A stretch of DNA of 64,000 nt from an uncultured Gammaproteobacteria bacterium (GCA_964515005.1 CAZEVT010000001.1:229616-293615), one strand, 5' to 3'. Numbered from the stretch's first letter, positions 9,636 through 60,640 are shown. Numbers and translations: made by a program. The notes: generated by a model from the sequence alone, not told the origin.

Positions 9636-10199
9636 ATGTCTACCATCTCAACCGCAGATTTTACCAAGGGCGGATTTATTGAGTTCAAAAGCGAACCGCA
9701 TCAGATTGTGGAATTTCAGCATGTGAATCCGGGGAAGGGGAGCGCGTTTGTCCGGACGCGCCTCAAGTCCCTTAAAACCGGTAAAGTGCAGGAGTTTACA
9801 TTCAAGTCAGGCGAAACCGTCACCGAAGTGCCGGTTGCGACCCGCGAAATGCAATATCTCTACAAAGAAGGTGACGCCTATGTGTTTATGGATAACACCT
9901 CGTATGAGCAGTTCAGCATTTCTGAGGGAATGCTGGGTCAGTACGTCCATTATCTTAAACCCAACGACACCTACCAGATATTAGTAAATGGAGACGCAGC
10001 CGTCGGCCTTCGGTTTCCCAAGAAAGTTTGCCTGAAGGTCACCGAGGCCACCGAAGGGGCAAAGGGTAACACCGTATCGGGAGCAACCAAAACCGTGATA
10101 GTGGAAACCGGCGCGGTTGTCACCGTTCCTTTATTTATCAAAGAAGGCGAGACTATCGCCATTGACCCGGAAACCGGAACGTATCTGGAGCGGGCATGA
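9636..10199 (+). CDS. efp: Elongation factor P
   Basis: N-terminus MSTISTADFTKGGFIEFKSEPHQIVEFQHVNPGKGSAFVRTRLK with conserved PGKG loop lysine. Confidence 0.9.
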   Translation: MSTISTADFTKGGFIEFKSEPHQIVEFQHVNPGKGSAFVRTRLKSLKTGKVQEFTFKSGETVTEVPVATREMQYLYKEGDAYVFMDNTSYEQFSISEGMLGQYVHYLKPNDTYQILVNGDAAVGLRFPKKVCLKVTEATEGAKGNTVSGATKTVIVETGAVVTVPLFIKEGETIAIDPETGTYLERA

Positions 10200-10714
10200 A
10201 GCGAATACTTCTCCTATTGGCAATTGGTATTGTCACCCTCCTCACATTTTCTTCGCAAAAATCCATTGAGGTTACGAAAGAGGCTACCTCAAGCGGGTCG
10301 CTCACGGTTGTCAAAGAAGAATTCTCACGTGTTAGTCGGGTTATTGATGGGGATACTGTCGAAATAGAGGGAGGGCGGCGGGTTCGGTATATTGGTGTTG
10401 ATACTCCGGAGGTAGCTCACGAAACGAAACCCCAAGAATGCTTTGCAAAAGAAGCAAGTGAGATCAATTCGTCCATCGTGTCCGGGAGTACCGTTCGATT
10501 AGTTCCAGATATTTCGGATACGGATGATTATGGCAGACTTCTGCGATATGTGTATGTGGGAGATATCCTGGTCAATGAAGCGCTCGTCCGGCAAGGGGCC
10601 GCCCGCGCAACTCCCATCCGGCCCGACACCACATTTGCAAACCGTCTGTATGCGGCCCAGCAGGAGGCCCGCGAAAACAACAGGGGATTGTGGAGTGGGT
10701 GTCTTGCCCAGTAG
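10196..10714 (+). CDS. Secreted thermonuclease (staphylococcal nuclease/SNase-like)
   Basis: VIDGDTVEI...RVRYIGVDTPE and DRYGRLLRYVYV...NEALVRQGAARA SNase motifs; signal/TM N-terminus. Confidence 0.75.
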   Translation: MKRILLLLAIGIVTLLTFSSQKSIEVTKEATSSGSLTVVKEEFSRVSRVIDGDTVEIEGGRRVRYIGVDTPEVAHETKPQECFAKEASEINSSIVSGSTVRLVPDISDTDDYGRLLRYVYVGDILVNEALVRQGAARATPIRPDTTFANRLYAAQQEARENNRGLWSGCLAQ

Positions 10715-18423: not shown

Positions 18424-18745
18424 TGTTCTTTAGAAGAATCGCGGGGTAGTGTAGAGTAGCACAGAAGGCTCAATATGGGCCCGTCGATATGCAAGTATCG
18501 GATGAAAATTTGGCTGTATCGGTGAAACCCAGATCGGGCAATACCGAGGCAACCTCCGATTAATCGGAGAGAGTCCGTAGAGACTATACGCCAAACCCTC
18601 ACAATACAGTGAGGAGATGATATAGTCCGGCACTCCCAGGAATGGGAGAATAACAGAAAAGCATAATCTTCTAGACCAGGCGCGCCTCCTGGCCCCGCAA
18701 CCAAGACACAAAAAAGCGACCGGAAGGGTCGCTTTTTGTTTGATA
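18424..18745 (+). ncRNA. Candidate structured non-coding RNA (~320 nt) of unknown class
   Basis: Non-coding interval bounded by a plus-strand TTGTCG-17-TATAAT promoter (18390-18418) and a GC hairpin plus T-run terminator (18712-18745); many short perfect stem-loops, including a GGAA-capped one; no class could be assigned. Confidence 0.35.
18712..18745. terminator. Bidirectional intrinsic terminator (aaaaaaGCGACCggaaGGGTCGCtttttg)
   Basis: 6-bp GC stem with A-run upstream and T-run downstream; serves rbp (minus) and the plus-strand candidate RNA. Confidence 0.7.
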
Positions 18746-31376: not shown

Positions 31377-33938
31377 TTAGTTTTCTTGTTCTTCAACTTT
31401 CTTATCAAAGTGGTCAATGTTTAAATCATATGAGTAAATCCATGATTGTCCGTTCGGGTCGATGCGCGTTTGGCCTTGTAGTGCAGGCGAAGAATAATTT
31501 TCTTTATGGGGAAATAGTACCGCGAGTGCGGCTAAACGTTCTGCTAATTGATATTTCGCGTACCAGTCACGAATGGTACGTACAACAAATCGAGCTTGTT
31601 CAATGGCCGATTCGTCATCCATGAGTTTTTCTCCGATTTTGGGTATGACCGTTTCAACCAATTGACCAGATTTAGTGTCTACGGGTATGTTATAAGTGAT
31701 GAAGGTGTCGGCATCTTTTTCGTCAAGCTCCCGAAGGTGAGGTCCGTGCGGATGTATCTGAATGATAAACTCATTGTTGCTTGAGCAAGACGCGGTCCAG
31801 GCGCAGTGCTGAAATTTAATTTCGGGGATTTCGGATAATTTATCTTTTGGAATATGGCCGACAAAAATTTCTGTAAGCGCTGCGTTTCCCCGCCACGCGT
31901 GATATCCGCCATATTTTGATTTTGTATAAAATGGATTGGCAAAAAACTCATCAATATCCTCTTCTGATGTGAAGACGGCCCACGGGCCTTTCCCGCCGTC
32001 AACATCCGGGAAGTGTGCGGTTCGAAGCGTGGCATCCCCGCCCGAACGGAGAATTTCCTTCACACGGCTTTTGATACCCACCACATCGTCTGCTTGTTTG
32101 ATATCGTACTCCATACGGATGTCCCGGGGAATTACCTGAATAAATGCGGCTTCAATCTTGGCTTTTCTGGATTGATATTCTTCCAAAGAAGTAAGCTTTT
32201 GGGTTGCCGTTTCGGCAATGTCGGAGATTTTCCATTCATCTTCCGGCGTCACTAAAAGTTGCCAAGGGTTTTGTCTCCGCTGCACATCCCACGATTTTGC
32301 TATTTCCAGAGCGTCCGCTGTTAAAAGGCTGCTCCCTGGTATTTCGGCGAGGGGGATAATCCCTCGGAATACTTCCCCAGTGGTTCCGTTTATGGTGACG
32401 ACGTCTCCTTTTTGTAGAGATTGATGCAGGCGGCCATCAAAAATGATCGGTCGATTCATACGCGCTCCTATGCGACCGGAGTGCGCGCCAATGCCTCCGC
32501 CGTGAGTGAACACACCTGCCACATTTTGAGGAAGTTTCAATAGATCGATCTTGGTGTTTTTTGGGGCCATCAGTACAACGTCAAGACGTGGTTGTTTTTT
32601 GGCCTCTTCTATGGAAAATACGACTACCCCGGTCGCGTGCCCATTCGTTATTCGTTGTCCGGTCGTGACCAAATCCCGAAGTCTTGCTTTTTCCATGGCT
32701 TTGGGGTCCAAATCGTAGTCCAAAACTGAATAGAGAATTCCCGCGGTTGCCAGCCGCATTGCAGTTTTTTCTGACATCTTTGCATCCTTTATTTGTTCGA
32801 GGAGCCAGAGAACATATGCGGGATTGGTGAGTGGTTCTCTGCGATCCTGAAGACCCCATCTATGTTCGTGTCCTTCAGCATCAACTTGGATGGTAAATTC
32901 AAAGTCCCGGGGGAATTGATAATAACTTTCAAGATCCTGGATCCACCTGCGTATTTCCTGTTTACCCGCATCGGAAATTGGAAGATCATCAATACTCATC
33001 TGTCTGTGTGGCGAGTCGCCGACAGGCGCATTTCCTTGCACGTGGGGTAACCATCCGACCACAGGCTCCTTGTCCAGTGTTTGCGGATCCCGCGAAAGCA
33101 CAACGCCGGACCCAGACCCTTCCCATTGAGAATTACCCCATACCATTCTCTGTACGGTGACTGCGGTTCCCAAATACTCCGATATACCAAACCGCCTGCG
33201 GTAGGCAATAGCTTCCGGACTGTTCCAAGATTCAAATACCGCATTCGTAGCCAAACGAAGTTGTTCATGAGGGTCCTGGGGAAATTCTTGGCACATATAT
33301 TTTACCCGAGCCTTCGTTATTTCCAAAAAAGATTTGATCATGAATAAGGGCAGTTCGTTGATACGTGCAAACCCCAGTGCTTCTTTGGCCGTGTCTTTGA
33401 GTTTTTCAATAACGGACATGTCGACGTGACAGATGTCCTCGGCAAATTGTTTGACGAAATGGTAATATGCAATCCACGCAGCATTTTCTCCAATTTCCTT
33501 TGCAAGCGCATGGATGGTATTTTTATTGAGTCCGATATTGAGGATTGTTTTCATGGCACCGGGCATGGAAGTTTCAGCGCCGGATCGGACGGAAACAAAT
33601 AAGGGGTGTTCCGGGTCACCGAAGCGTTCCTTAGTGATCTTTTCCAACTGACCCACGCGTGTCGTCAATTCTTCAGCCACTGGTTTCGGTAAAGCATTTT
33701 CAGAAAGATATGCTCTTCCTACATCGGTGCTTAAAGTAAACTCCGGGGGAATGGGGATTCCAAGCTTCGTCATTACCAAAAGACTTAACGCTTTACCACC
33801 GAGGGCTTCCTTCGTTGCGGGAACGAGTGAGTCTTCATCGGTATCCCAGGATGCCCGGCTGTATGAAAATTGCCGCGGTTCTCCCTCGGTTGAATGTAAT
33901 CTGTCCTGTTCTGGCCGTCTTAACGATGTGGATGCCAT
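31377..33938 (-). CDS. PEP-utilizing-enzyme family phosphotransferase: PPDK-type N-terminal ATP-grasp domain + central phospho-His swivel domain + unrecognised ~300-aa C-terminal domain (no TIM-barrel PEP domain)
   Basis: N-terminus GGKALSLLVMTKLGIPIPPEF...YYHF like PPDK/PpsA nucleotide-binding domain; swivel domain ...VAGVFTHGGGIGAHSGRIGARMNRPIIFDG...DVVTINGTTGEVF; C-terminal region matches nothing I recognise. Confidence 0.65.
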   Translation of the reverse strand: MASTSLRRPEQDRLHSTEGEPRQFSYSRASWDTDEDSLVPATKEALGGKALSLLVMTKLGIPIPPEFTLSTDVGRAYLSENALPKPVAEELTTRVGQLEKITKERFGDPEHPLFVSVRSGAETSMPGAMKTILNIGLNKNTIHALAKEIGENAAWIAYYHFVKQFAEDICHVDMSVIEKLKDTAKEALGFARINELPLFMIKSFLEITKARVKYMCQEFPQDPHEQLRLATNAVFESWNSPEAIAYRRRFGISEYLGTAVTVQRMVWGNSQWEGSGSGVVLSRDPQTLDKEPVVGWLPHVQGNAPVGDSPHRQMSIDDLPISDAGKQEIRRWIQDLESYYQFPRDFEFTIQVDAEGHEHRWGLQDRREPLTNPAYVLWLLEQIKDAKMSEKTAMRLATAGILYSVLDYDLDPKAMEKARLRDLVTTGQRITNGHATGVVVFSIEEAKKQPRLDVVLMAPKNTKIDLLKLPQNVAGVFTHGGGIGAHSGRIGARMNRPIIFDGRLHQSLQKGDVVTINGTTGEVFRGIIPLAEIPGSSLLTADALEIAKSWDVQRRQNPWQLLVTPEDEWKISDIAETATQKLTSLEEYQSRKAKIEAAFIQVIPRDIRMEYDIKQADDVVGIKSRVKEILRSGGDATLRTAHFPDVDGGKGPWAVFTSEEDIDEFFANPFYTKSKYGGYHAWRGNAALTEIFVGHIPKDKLSEIPEIKFQHCAWTASCSSNNEFIIQIHPHGPHLRELDEKDADTFITYNIPVDTKSGQLVETVIPKIGEKLMDDESAIEQARFVVRTIRDWYAKYQLAERLAALAVLFPHKENYSSPALQGQTRIDPNGQSWIYSYDLNIDHFDKKVEEQEN

Positions 33939-34039
33939 AGCGACTACACGAGCGCGTGTCGGGGGATTGTACCAAAATTAGTCCGAAGAGTAAAACTATG
34001 AGGTTGCTATTGATTGTATTGTATCACACAGTGTAATCG

Positions 34040-34663
34040 TTAAACAGAGGCACGTATTACTGAGGGAGGTTTGATGGTGAGCGCAATGGTTCTAATAATA
34101 TCTTTTTTGAGCCCTTCATGTTCTAGATCGCGTGAGTGGATTGAAACAACCGGAAGATGTGTTTGGGCTACCCACTCATTGTGAAGCCGTGTGAGCGTAT
34201 CGACAAAATCAGGGTCGGCATCGTCATGACCTTTATTGCGACGTTTTAGCCTTGCCATAAGAAAATCCTTGTCATCTTTGAGGTATAGCGTGAGGTCGGG
34301 GATAGCGAGATGTTGGGTAAGTCGCGCGGCTAAATCACCATATCGGGTGTTTTGGTCGGGAGTCAGAATAATTGTTGAATGCAGGAGGTATGTGGGAAAA
34401 CCAGAATCGATAATCGCGATTTTTCCGTCTTCCAGAAGACGCGTCGCCTCTGAGAGACGCCGGACGTACTGTTGCAAAAACCAAACTTGGTTGTTCCACG
34501 AGTGTTCGCCGCTGCGGTGCGCGTCGGCCATATACGGGTTGTCTTCGGTGGTTTCCAAAAAAACAGTAGCGCCTAACGCCACCCCCAGATCTTTGGCAAA
34601 TGTAGTTTTGCCCCCACATGTGGGGCCGATAAGCTCAATGAGCTTGCCGTATTCTGGAGTCAT
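34040..34663 (-). CDS. Deoxynucleoside kinase (dCK/dGK family)
   Basis: P-loop IGPTCGGKTTFAK; dNK-family E-R-S-like region and LID; 207 aa. Confidence 0.75.
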   Translation of the reverse strand: MTPEYGKLIELIGPTCGGKTTFAKDLGVALGATVFLETTEDNPYMADAHRSGEHSWNNQVWFLQQYVRRLSEATRLLEDGKIAIIDSGFPTYLLHSTIILTPDQNTRYGDLAARLTQHLAIPDLTLYLKDDKDFLMARLKRRNKGHDDADPDFVDTLTRLHNEWVAQTHLPVVSIHSRDLEHEGLKKDIIRTIALTIKPPSVIRASV

Positions 34664-34723
34664 ACGTGACGGGAGTATAGCAGAATGGATACGGAGAGTA
34701 AAACTATAAGATTAAATAGTGTA

Positions 34724-34936
34724 TTAATCTTTTCTACTTGGTTGGTCGCTTCTAACAGCAGTTGTGGCTTCACTCATTGCAGCGCCGGCCGCTTGCGAAG
34801 GCGTGGCACCTGCATCTATGGCGCCTTGTCTCAGTATATCGGCGGTTCTTGCTGCTTTTTTAGCCACTTTCCTGTGGGCATCGGCAATCATTCCTGGTGT
34901 AATTGGTGTTTCCGGTGTGGGTGGTCCTGCTGTCAT
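34724..34936 (-). CDS. Small hypothetical protein (70 aa), possibly first gene of the dNK/phosphotransferase transcript
   Basis: AGGAAG RBS 7 nt upstream of ATG; Ala-rich; an overlapping plus-strand ORF lacks an RBS. Confidence 0.3.
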   Translation of the reverse strand: MTAGPPTPETPITPGMIADAHRKVAKKAARTADILRQGAIDAGATPSQAAGAAMSEATTAVRSDQPSRKD

Positions 34937-35021
34937 ATATTTTCTTCCTAAGTATTGCTAGTTTAACATAGTATGGCTTCGTTGACAAATACGTGAGGTT
35001 CCCGTAAGATGATTGCATTGT

Positions 35022-35726
35022 ATGGCTGATAAGAATGGTACATTTATTCTTTCTGTTGGCGGATCTCTCATCATCCCCAATGGTATTGTCGACACCAAAT
35101 TTTTGAGTGAGTTTAATACCTTTATCCGAAAACAAGTCTCCGAAAAAAAGCGGAGATTTTTTATCGTGGTGGGGGGCGGGTCGATTGCCGCTAAATACAT
35201 CGACGCGGCCAAAGAAATACGGGGGAAGGATTTGAGCGACGCAGACAAAGACTGGCTTGGTATTCACGCGACGCGTCTCAACGCTCAACTCGTCCGTACT
35301 GTTTTTCAGGATATTGCCGATGCCCGGGTCATCAAACACTATGAAATTATTTTGAAAATTACCCACCCGGTGGCGGTTGCGGCCGGTTGGAAGCCCGGAT
35401 GGAGTACCGACTACGATGCGGTAACCTTGTGCGCGGATTATGGGGTGCGGGAAGTTATAAACTTAACCAATATCGACAAAGTCTATGACAAAGATCCGAA
35501 TAAGTTTACCGATGCCAAACCGATGGATGAGATCACCTGGAAAAAGTACCGCGCGCTCGTCGGCGACACCTGGAGCCCGCGGATGAGCGCTCCCTTTGAC
35601 CCGATTGCATCCAAGCTCGCCCAGGAGCTCGGGATCACCGTCAAAATCCTCAACGGCAAGAATCTCGAGAACCTCGGAAAAGCCCTGGACGAGAAGCCTT
35701 TTTTTGGCACCACGATTCGGGCATGA
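35022..35726 (+). CDS. pyrH: UMP kinase (archaeal-type PyrH, amino-acid-kinase fold)
   Basis: FILSVGGSLI glycine-rich N-motif and IVVGGGSIA motif of archaeal UMP kinases. Confidence 0.7.
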   Translation: MADKNGTFILSVGGSLIIPNGIVDTKFLSEFNTFIRKQVSEKKRRFFIVVGGGSIAAKYIDAAKEIRGKDLSDADKDWLGIHATRLNAQLVRTVFQDIADARVIKHYEIILKITHPVAVAAGWKPGWSTDYDAVTLCADYGVREVINLTNIDKVYDKDPNKFTDAKPMDEITWKKYRALVGDTWSPRMSAPFDPIASKLAQELGITVKILNGKNLENLGKALDEKPFFGTTIRA

Positions 35727-45433: not shown

Positions 45434-45931
45434 ATGTTCAATGATCGCGCGCATGCAGCTTCGCTTCTTGCCCAAAAACTTCTTCCTTATCGGGGAAAGA
45501 TAGACCTTATCCTTGGGCTTGCGCGTGGCGGCGTTGTCGTTTCCCGCGAGCTTTCGCGCACGCTTGGCATTCCCCACAACGCGCTGGTCGTCAAAAAGAT
45601 CGGTAGCCCGGGCAATCCGGAGCTTGCCATTGGGGCCGTGGTGCCCGAGGGACAGCCAATTGACGTTCGGGATAAAGCGGTTATGGTAACAGACGACGGG
45701 GCGGCAACCGGGGCAACCATGGTAGCCGCAATCTCGTGGGTCAAAAGCCACGAGGCAAGAAAAATTGTCGTTGCTTTGCCCGTCGCGCCTCCGGAGGTGG
45801 CGGTTACACTCCATACGCTCGCAGATGACGTTGTTGTGCTCGCAACCCCCGCGGATTTCGGCGCAGTAGGACAGTATTACAAAAACTTTCCGCAGCTTTC
45901 GGACAAAGAAGTGGTAACATTACTTGTATGA
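45434..45931 (+). CDS. Phosphoribosyltransferase-domain protein
   Basis: PRPP-binding-like motif VMVTDDGAATGATM; PRTase type I fold. Confidence 0.6.
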   Translation: MFNDRAHAASLLAQKLLPYRGKIDLILGLARGGVVVSRELSRTLGIPHNALVVKKIGSPGNPELAIGAVVPEGQPIDVRDKAVMVTDDGAATGATMVAAISWVKSHEARKIVVALPVAPPEVAVTLHTLADDVVVLATPADFGAVGQYYKNFPQLSDKEVVTLLV

Positions 45932-59704: not shown

Positions 59705-59901
59705 CAAAAAAAACATACAAGATAGACGGGATGCACTGCACGAGCTGTGCGCTTATGATTGAAAGCGATCTTGAGGATGCCGGGGTGAAAGCTACATGTA
59801 ATTACGCCAAGGAGATACTCGAAGTGGAGTTTGATGAGCAAAAGATCGGAGAAAAAAAGATTACTGAAGTTGTTGCTTCAGCAGGGTATCAAATTGTTTG
59901 A
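59701..59901 (+). CDS. copZ: Copper chaperone CopZ (HMA domain)
   Basis: MHCTSCA metal-binding motif; 66 aa. Confidence 0.8.
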   Translation: MTKKTYKIDGMHCTSCALMIESDLEDAGVKATCNYAKEILEVEFDEQKIGEKKITEVVASAGYQIV

Positions 59902-60286
59902 GTGCATCTTCTTCTGACGTAAAGATTAACTCTTTTTTAACGGCAGGGCATCCCCGGAGCATGCGGGAGATGCGTTTGCCTTTTTCATACAGAATATAAA
60001 CGGGGATGTTTTGCCTGTGGGCATATTCTATTTCAATCCCGGTACCGGTACTGGGTTCTCCCATATATGCGACCATAAGGTCACTGTGTGTGAGCTGGTG
60101 CGTATCGATTTTGTAGACTTCAGTGGGGGAAACGTCCGGGTTTTTAATAGGATCCGTACCTTTCAAAAATGCCCAAAAGTAGTCAAAGCCGTTTTTTTGC
60201 GCAACAGCCGCCAAGCGTCGATAAAACGCTTTTGTTTTGACAGGGTTTTTGAGGTCCGTCAGCGGTCCGGCAAAGAATATGCGCAT
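59861..60286 (-). CDS. Nucleoside 2-deoxyribosyltransferase-like protein (start at internal Met of the ORF)
   Basis: MRIFFAGPL...YMGEPSTGTGIEIEYA pattern of the NDT/Rcl-like flavodoxin fold; 3' end overlaps copZ by ~40 nt convergently. Confidence 0.5.
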   Translation of the reverse strand: MRIFFAGPLTDLKNPVKTKAFYRRLAAVAQKNGFDYFWAFLKGTDPIKNPDVSPTEVYKIDTHQLTHSDLMVAYMGEPSTGTGIEIEYAHRQNIPVYILYEKGKRISRMLRGCPAVKKELIFTSEEDALKQFDTLLKQQLQ

Positions 60287-60316
60287 AAGGTCTTTATATG
60301 ATACACTAAAACTCTT

Positions 60317-60640
60317 ATGGCAGATATTGCAATTACCGATGCGAATTTTGATGACCAGGTTTTGAAAAACGATAAGCCCGTGCTCGTCGACTTTTGGGCG
60401 GTTTGGTGCGGCCCGTGTCAGGTCCAGGGGCCGATTATTAAAGACATAGCCAAGGAGATGGAGGGGAAAGCAGTCGTATGGGAGTTTAATGTTGATGAAA
60501 ATCCGCAGATGGCACAAAAGTACAATGTCATGAGTATTCCGACCCTCATGATCTTCAAGGGCGGCACGGTGGTGCGGCAGTTTATCGGTGTGCAGTCAAA
60601 AGAAACACTTCTTGGAGAACTCAACAAACTTATCAACTAA
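60317..60640 (+). CDS. trxA: Thioredoxin
   Basis: WCGPC active site; 107 aa. Confidence 0.9.
   Translation: MADIAITDANFDDQVLKNDKPVLVDFWAVWCGPCQVQGPIIKDIAKEMEGKAVVWEFNVDENPQMAQKYNVMSIPTLMIFKGGTVVRQFIGVQSKETLLGELNKLIN

Follow-up and report, generated by a model that had tools for sequence, protein, structure and literature searches.

Phosphoenolpyruvate (PEP)-utilising enzymes and dikinases share a classic modular chassis, i.e. an ATP-grasp domain together with a swivelling domain that carries phosphate on a histidine. In pyruvate phosphate dikinase (PPDK), this chassis is followed by a C-terminal TIM barrel, the PEP/pyruvate domain. In a second group of enzymes, the ATP-grasp beta domain of succinyl-CoA synthetase (SCS) and of NDP (nucleoside diphosphate)-forming acyl-CoA synthetase (ACD) passes phosphate from a phospho-His onto NDP. 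To our knowledge, all characterised dikinases that combine an ATP-grasp domain with a swivel His have a non-nucleotide acceptor site, and in none does the acceptor domain have the ATP-grasp fold. Rifampin phosphotransferase (RPH) has the order ATP-grasp domain, rifampin-binding domain and C-terminal His domain (PMC4844700), and VadK, of the Rv1127c type, is a barrel-less PPDK derivative that functions as a His autokinase with protein partners (PMC13400623). Here, we analyse a 64,000-nt stretch of DNA (the window; all coordinates are counted from its start), deposited as part of an uncultured Gammaproteobacteria bacterium (GCA_964515005.1, CAZEVT010000001.1:229616-293615), in which a minus-strand gene, below referred to as the large gene, encodes an 853-aa protein with a PPDK-type ATP-grasp domain, a swivel domain and, in place of the barrel, a C-terminal domain (C-domain) that is predicted to be a second ATP-grasp. 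We tentatively favour the reading that this protein relays phosphate between its two ATP-grasp domains.

Results

The N-terminal part of the 853-aa protein is PPDK-like

In Pfam, the 853-aa protein matches PPDK_N (PF01326; 1.5e-30) and, over residues 453-521, PEP-utilizers (8.9e-6). Two NCBIfam models also align, i.e. TIGR01828 (PPDK; 286 bits, cut-off 843) over residues 42-533 only, and NF004531 (truncated PPDK; 263 bits, cut-off 456) over residues 40-577. PEP-utilizers_C (PF02896) gave no match at E<=1, and residues 535-853 had no match to any Pfam family. The two libraries agree with the original prediction, which had read from the DNA a PPDK-type ATP-grasp domain and a phospho-His swivel domain (FTHGGGIGAHSG, residues 478-489) without a PEP/pyruvate TIM barrel. 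By these matches, the protein is PPDK/PEPS-family-like and falls outside PPDK itself, as it has no barrel and scores far under the cut-off.

Across 40 full-length members of ~30% identity, G47, K49, R118, E347, Q364, R366 and H486 are invariant; we take these residues to be the nucleotide/Mg site of PPDK and its phospho-carrier histidine. Because these catalytic residues are conserved, the partial reaction from ATP to His486 is very probably intact. The full-length AlphaFold model of the protein had a pLDDT of 91.1 and a pTM of 0.87.

The C-domain is predicted to be a second ATP-grasp

The C-domain, which includes HCAW at residues 711-714 and IQIHPHGPH at residues 726-734, had been described as ~300 residues without a recognisable motif and of unknown nature. 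The first part of this description holds at the level of sequence: no sequence library matched residues 535-853, there was no Pfam or NCBIfam match to the C-domain, and neither a single sequence nor a 34-sequence profile matched the PDB sequences. The second part does not hold at the level of the fold. The AlphaFold model of the C-domain, built from the 34-sequence alignment A2 (pLDDT 94.2, pTM 0.90), shows the topology of an ATP-grasp, with mixed antiparallel sheets. Its structural matches were the ATP-grasp domain of PatZ (9isb, score 9.7), the ATP domain of RPH (5hv6, 9.5), HpeI (9goj, 9.1), ACD beta (4xyl, 8.9), maize PPDK (1vbg, 8.5) and SCS beta (6no0, 8.3). In an independent comparison with Foldseek, SCS beta came out on top (E 1.7e-4, probability 1.0), and D-Ala-D-Ala ligases were next, ahead of ACD beta and PEP synthase (PEPS). 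On the strength of these top matches, we conclude that the C-domain is, as modelled, a second, highly diverged ATP-grasp rather than a new fold or a barrel that has diverged. A diverged TIM barrel was ruled out, the model having ATP-grasp topology and not that of an (alpha/beta)8 barrel; the original prediction had staked its case on this point, and no barrel is present in the model.

Residue conservation in the C-domain was counted over 61 long members, with the most distant ones included. K592 and R736 were found in 61/61, R639 in 60/61 (Lys in one) and Q823 in all 56 sequences aligned at this position. H711 (58/61), K700 (56/61), E690 (49/61) and R825 (47/61) followed, and position 821 is Glu in 47 members and Gln in the clade of the window. 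In the full-length model, the order of secondary structure elements in the C-domain parallels that in the N-terminal ATP-grasp domain minus the helical insert of the latter. By this parallel, K592 would have the position of K49 at the start of the helix that precedes the first strand, R639, within the strand ATLRT, would be the counterpart of R118 within SVRSG, and Q821, Q823 and R825 would lie in the penultimate strand at the place of E347, Q364 and R366. Judged by position, K592, R639, R736, E/Q821 and Q823 may form a Mg-nucleotide site in the cleft of the C-domain.

The family is rare and comes from candidate phyla radiation bacteria

When 1.84 billion cluster representatives were searched exhaustively with the C-domain by phmmer, 70 relatives were obtained, 26 of which had E<1e-30. 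Almost all of them form the C-terminal end of proteins of 770-1030 aa, i.e. the architecture is fixed. P0001 is identical to the 853-aa protein; of the full-length relatives, P0002-P0004 (56-61% identity) are closest, followed by P0005-P0008 (33-38%) and P0010 (30%), beyond which come thousands of canonical PPDKs that cover just ~57% of the query. Among 185,579 GTDB species representatives, three carry the C-domain. Two of these are Ca. Gottesmanbacteria, and the third carrier is a contig labelled Gammaproteobacteria with Gottesmanbacteria synteny, probably the result of mis-binning. One cluster member is from Ca. Roizmanbacteria, and the named members are Microgenomates. In total, we conclude that the family is rare and comes from candidate phyla radiation (CPR) bacteria. 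No sequence model exists for the C-domain. Members of the family are labelled 'hypothetical' or 'PEP/pyruvate-binding domain-containing protein'; for one of them, 'PEP/pyruvate-binding domain-containing protein [Patescibacteria group bacterium]' is the only annotation.

Loci were scanned with a 7-sequence alignment, the 34-sequence alignment being too divergent, and comprised 3 genome and 12 metagenome loci, a small sample biased to the Gottesmanbacteria clade. The contig L009 (CAYRFA010000045.1), deposited as uncultured Gammaproteobacteria, has the gene order UMP-kinase-like, large gene, GT4 and 5'-3' exonuclease; because this synteny equals that of Gottesmanbacteria loci, L009 is probably a mis-binned CPR contig. 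In the GenBank Gottesmanbacteria contig MFJZ01000041 (L007, 4419-6912), the large gene is split into two overlapping open reading frames (ORFs) of 454 and 413 aa, while it is intact in a near-identical metagenome contig (L018, 2880-5378); the split is due to a frameshift, which reflects either a sequencing error or a pseudogene.

Relatives of the C-domain or of the kinase encoded upstream of the large gene were not detected among viral contigs, and PADLOC gave no match for the 853-aa protein. Therefore, a defence or phage origin is unsupported.

The three genes of the locus have separate promoter-like sites

The coordinates of all features are listed in Table 1. Orthologues of all three minus-strand ORFs are found at the same positions in related genomes, i.e. 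the ORFs are beyond chance, and their predicted coordinates and lengths (853, 207 and 70 aa) are correct. The description of the smallest one as Ala-rich and preceded by a ribosome-binding site was likewise confirmed.

Table 1 Features of the locus in the 64,000-nt window
Feature	Coordinates	Strand	Remarks
Large gene, 853-aa ORF	31377..33938	minus	Three-domain phosphotransferase: ATP-grasp / phospho-His swivel / predicted second ATP-grasp
C-terminal region, residues 535-853	31380..32336	minus	Linker helices 541-602 and predicted diverged ATP-grasp core ~603-845
Phospho-His swivel (mobile) domain, residues ~420-533	32340..32681	minus	
His486 codon (GGIGAH)	32481..32483	minus	Predicted phospho-carrier; invariant in alignments A1 and A4
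PPDK-type ATP-grasp domain, residues ~38-400	32739..33827	minus	PPDK_N match and conserved residues
Large-gene promoter-like site	33966..33994	minus	TTTACT-17-TACAAT, TG-extended; element shared with orthologues
Deoxynucleoside kinase gene, 207-aa ORF	34040..34663	minus	P-loop kinase of the deoxynucleoside kinase family; apparent lineage-specific insertion
Kinase-gene promoter-like site	34674..34702	minus	TTTACT-17-TATACT, TG-extended; apparent duplicate of the large-gene promoter
Small ORF, 70 aa	34724..34936	minus	~24% Ala; AGGAAG 9 nt 5' of ATG
Small-ORF promoter-like site	34960..34988	minus	TTGTCA-17-TAAACT
AA_kinase-family (UMP-kinase-like) gene	35013..35726	plus	Divergent neighbour; Pfam AA_kinase 3.1e-22

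The original prediction had placed the three genes in one unit. This is not borne out: a sigma-70-like promoter match carrying an extended -10 element precedes each of the three, and gaps of 101 and 60 nt lie between them.

The 207-aa protein was correctly assigned to the deoxynucleoside kinase (dNK) family, scoring 38.9 bits with Pfam dNK (cut-off 27) and matching the PDB dNK 8puu (2.4e-7) and phrog_761 (3.6e-16). It resembles dCK/dGK-type kinases (PF01712) in its P-loop GPTCGGKTT, E..NPY, Gln and Arg-rich LID, and is only ~25% identical to annotated (phage) dNKs. Because it scores equally against the phage 'thymidylate kinase' PHROG, its substrate could be a nucleoside or a deoxynucleoside monophosphate (dNMP) alike. 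Members of the dNK family have a (D/E)R(S/Y) motif behind the third strand; the segment presumed to lie at this place is IIDSG in the window dNK and likewise in its L001 orthologue, with DSG at the putative motif position.

The pairing of the dNK with the dikinase, which had been called tight and was to be checked for co-conservation, is restricted to the window and L001, where tblastn detected a dNK with 74% identity next to a large protein with 61% identity. By contrast, tblastn did not find the dNK in L002-L005, L007, L009, L012, L018 and L024/25, all of which include upstream sequence; L012 lacks it despite encoding a large protein of 58% identity. The pairing thus appears to be recent and lineage-specific.

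The promoter regions are consistent with such an event. An element, TTATAGTTTTAC...TGnTAnAnT-CCC, precedes the large-gene orthologues in L001, L012, L002, L004 and L003. The promoter region of the dNK is identical at 32/43 positions (74%) to that of the large gene and at 31/39 positions to the single promoter of the dNK-less L012; both window promoters resemble the single promoter of the dNK-less relatives. Moreover, in the entire window, exact copies of the 13-mer ATAGTTTTACTCT are confined to two positions, 33987-33999 and 34695-34707. From the 32/43 identity and the confinement of the 13-mer to two sites, we infer that the dNK gene was inserted along with a duplicated copy of the large-gene promoter. 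The shared promoter type suggests co-expression of the dNK and the large gene and not an ancestral partnership and, being absent elsewhere in the 64 kb, the 13-mer may be a specific regulatory site instead of a generic promoter. A Shine-Dalgarno sequence is lacking in front of the large gene, the short leader of which is able to form a hairpin.

Diverged orthologues of the small ORF are present in L001, L012, L002 and L004 and have AD..R(L/K)(I/V) and a C-terminal D(K/Q).P..(E/K)D in common; the small ORF in L003 ends differently. L007/L018 and L009/L024 have no such ORF or a different one, and the small ORF of the window had no family match in searches of Pfam, NCBIfam, PADLOC or PHROG. A role as an obligatory partner or substrate was ruled out because it is missing in further clades; it appears to be a clade-specific upstream neighbour.

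Nucleotide-kinase-like genes recur next to the large gene in relatives

In Gottesmanbacteria-type loci, the genes for a RecF-like protein and the UMP-kinase-like AA_kinase lie on one strand, the large gene, at times with the small ORF, is divergent from them, and genes for an ABC-2 transporter, GT4 and a 5'-3' exonuclease follow in convergent orientation; this order is constant. The UMP-kinase-like orthologue keeps its position in L001-L005, L007, L009, L012, L018 and L024/25.

In a distant subclade (L006, L010 and L011), the large gene overlaps by 4 nt with a translationally coupled gene for a P-loop kinase of 211-219 aa, after which a protein of 179-184 aa is encoded. Among structures, this kinase matches those of the AdkA-like/UPF0200 type (2.4e-12); it also matches a PHROG dNMP kinase (2.3e-9) and, at 3.6e-22, the kinase portion of the 'dCTPase' model of PADLOC. 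Unrelated nucleotide-kinase-like proteins are thus apparent neighbours of the large gene in two clades, which is the best contextual hint to function. A PPAT/NMNAT-like+DUF359 fusion is encoded directly upstream of the large gene in L026, and a phosphoribosyltransferase near it in L021.

In L010 (9673-10840), the genes for the AdkA/dNMP-kinase-like protein and the 179-aa protein overlap, and the N terminus of the latter resembles a degenerate P-loop. Directly upstream of the large gene in L010 (1-6847), and also in L011 and L006, lie genes for GmrSD, the type I restriction protein HsdR, a YgjP-like protein and a PLD/DrmC-like nuclease; these surroundings could be a defence island or a coincidence.

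The composition of the window is flat, as in ordinary chromosomal DNA of a small-genome bacterium, and its housekeeping genes provide an L25, EF-P, Pth, RecF-like and FtsH-like context. It also contains salvage-type genes, i.e. a homologue of secreted-type staphylococcal nuclease (10196-10714, plus strand) as well as a phosphoribosyltransferase and a nucleoside 2-deoxyribosyltransferase-like gene (45434-45931, plus strand; 59861-60517, minus strand), which fit a nucleotide-scavenging lifestyle. No ndk, adk or tmk was seen among 20 scanned window ORFs of 165-238 aa.

Finally, a group I intron lies outside any rRNA at 18461-18649 on the plus strand (Rfam RF00028, full-length model, 58.8 bits against a gathering threshold of 50). 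By eye, its flanks (18440-18470 and 18662-18712) resemble a split tRNA with the anticodon loop CUCAUAA (anticodon CAU) and a GCGGGG/CCCCGC acceptor stem; such a tRNA would have a non-canonical T-loop, and ARAGORN detected none at these flanks, whether run with intron options or on the manually spliced sequence.

Discussion

Altogether, these observations lead us to the tentative proposal that the 853-aa protein is a PPDK-derived phospho-His relay between two ATP-grasp domains, the partner at the second of which would be a nucleotide. In the proposed mechanism, the N-terminal ATP-grasp would use ATP to phosphorylate His486, and the swivel domain would carry the phosphoryl group from His486 to the cleft of the C-domain, giving the net reaction ATP (+Pi) + (d)NDP or nucleoside monophosphate (NMP) <-> AMP (+pyrophosphate (PPi)) + phosphorylated nucleotide. 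Such a reaction could serve a CPR bacterium for the salvage of nucleotides or the recovery of energy and, in the reverse direction, for PPi-linked AMP recovery; the product of the dNK may feed the same pathway, with the dNK not being an obligatory partner. As far as we know, ATP-grasps that trade phosphate with a phospho-His all hold a nucleotide, either as donor (PPDK, PEPS and RPH) or as acceptor (SCS, ACD and ATP-citrate lyase (ACLY)), and phospho-His-linked ATP-grasps are the best structural matches of the C-domain model. A nucleotide partner is favoured because such ATP-grasps hold nucleotides and because nucleotide-kinase neighbours recur. In this form, the nucleotide theme of the original prediction survives on independent evidence, carried by the AdkA-/dNMP-kinase-like gene of the distant subclade and the fold of the C-domain; the conserved dNK pair on which it had been built does not.

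Several observations weigh against a relay to a nucleotide. The pairing with the dNK is not conserved, and the adjacency of the UMP-kinase-like gene may mean nothing because the entire region is syntenic within the lineage. The Glu at position 821, which resembles a Mg ligand, is replaced by Gln in the clade of the window itself. Moreover, the residues of the C-domain were mapped onto those of the N-terminal ATP-grasp by secondary-structure order and not by superposition, and the two domains show no homology by sequence in hhalign (probability 3.5%), so that an internal duplication cannot be demonstrated by sequence. Finally, two phosphoanhydride bonds would be spent per nucleoside triphosphate (NTP), which has no obvious advantage.

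A more far-reaching version of the proposal, which we consider unlikely though worth stating, is that the protein represents a new class of nucleotide kinase in which a swivelling phospho- or pyrophospho-His takes phosphate from the ATP of the first ATP-grasp and passes it to a (d)NDP, (d)NMP or AMP that occupies the second. If true, it would be a PPDK-style, PPi-linked substitute for NDP or NMP kinases, or a PPi-driven means of recovering AMP to ADP or ATP in CPR bacteria.

Alternatively, His486~P could phosphorylate a metabolite, an antibiotic or a xenobiotic bound in the C-domain, in the style of RPH, HpeHI or phenylphosphate synthase, which is essentially the idea of the original prediction. 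This possibility is a doubtful one. The chassis has repeatedly been recombined with varied acceptor domains (PMC4844700, PMC12167813), the clefts of ATP-grasps also take carboxylates, inositol phosphates or peptides, as seen among the structural matches, and the Gln at position 821 in the window clade would agree with a ligand other than a nucleotide. However, an ATP-grasp as acceptor is without precedent among known dikinases, the genes nearby are housekeeping or nucleotide-related and include no resistance, catabolic or biosynthetic genes, PADLOC gave no match, and the hosts are CPR bacteria with reduced genomes.

It is improbable that the protein is a regulatory autokinase which, as VadK does, only autophosphorylates and acts on partner proteins, with the C-terminal ATP-grasp sensing a ligand or serving for docking. 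The match of the N-terminal 577 residues to NF004531 and the precedent of M. tuberculosis VadK, a His autokinase that derives from PPDK and has protein partners (PMC13400623), speak for it; however, the match scores under the cut-off, the 320 extra residues are strongly conserved and include an active-site-like K/R/R/Q constellation, and no candidate target gene is conserved across clades. Scarcely more probable, and if anything less so, is that the dNK gene, the small ORF and the large gene form an operon for a two-step nucleoside modification or toxin inactivation, i.e. the module originally predicted. While the genes share a strand, have short gaps and are kept as a trio in L001, and while the homologous promoters of the dNK and large genes suggest co-regulation, a promoter-like site precedes each gene, the dNK was not found at other orthologous loci with upstream sequence, including the 58%-identical one, and further clades lack the small ORF or have a different one.

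We regard it as very improbable that the C-domain is of the ligase type and activates a carboxylate, e.g. the acidic C terminus (...ED) of the small protein, as LysX does with LysW or RimK with S6: small ORFs end in (E/K)D in five loci, but the small ORF is confined to one clade and has a different ending in L003, ligases score below the phospho-His-linked ATP-grasps among the structural matches, and the retained swivel His would be left unexplained. Lastly, a plain PPDK or PpsA with a TIM barrel diverged beyond recognition is effectively refuted, given that the C-terminal region, although barrel-sized (~320 aa) and placed after PPDK-like linker helices, is modelled with mixed antiparallel sheets in ATP-grasp topology, and that the TIGR01828 alignment ends at residue 533 with 286 bits against 843.

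Coming back to the proposed relay, the protein can be compared with the known systems as follows. With PPDK (TIGR01828; maize 1vbg) it shares the residues of the N-terminal ATP-grasp, the central swivel His, the domain order and 33-36% identity over residues ~40-533; it differs in that the C-terminal TIM barrel of PPDK (PF02896) is replaced by an ATP-grasp, as the model predicts, and in the low TIGR01828 score. VadK and the Rv1127c-type proteins (NF004531) are likewise PPDK derivatives without a barrel that have an ATP-grasp domain and the His (PMC13400623), but VadK ends after the His domain, whereas the 853-aa protein adds a conserved domain of 320 residues and scores 263 bits against 456. 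RPH and HpeHI likewise combine an ATP-grasp and a swivel His with an exchangeable acceptor domain. The original prediction held that the architecture is shared with RPH; however, the substrate domain of RPH is central, not an ATP-grasp, and followed by a C-terminal His domain (PMC4844700), whereas in the 853-aa protein the His domain is central and the extra domain C-terminal. Thus, the protein is not of the VadK type, having an extra conserved domain, and not of the RPH type, having a different domain order. SCS, ACD, ATP-citrate lyase and PatZ have the ATP-grasp (beta) fold of the C-domain at 8-13% identity and without sequence similarity; in the SCS type, the phospho-His is on a loop of another subunit and there is no PEP-utiliser swivel, while the 853-aa protein has no CoA-ligase module.

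Among solved structures, no chain aligns with more than 393 of the 853 residues, and the profile libraries and literature searched contained no enzyme with the order ATP-grasp, swivel His and ATP-grasp; the literature searched also had nothing of relevance on this family in Patescibacteria. Compared with the modular enzymes of the PEP-utilising/dikinase type, this order is an architectural novelty. If the second site binds a nucleotide, the protein would represent a new way of moving phosphate between nucleotides, and one that bears on the balance of AMP, PPi and (d)NTPs in salvage-dependent CPR bacteria.

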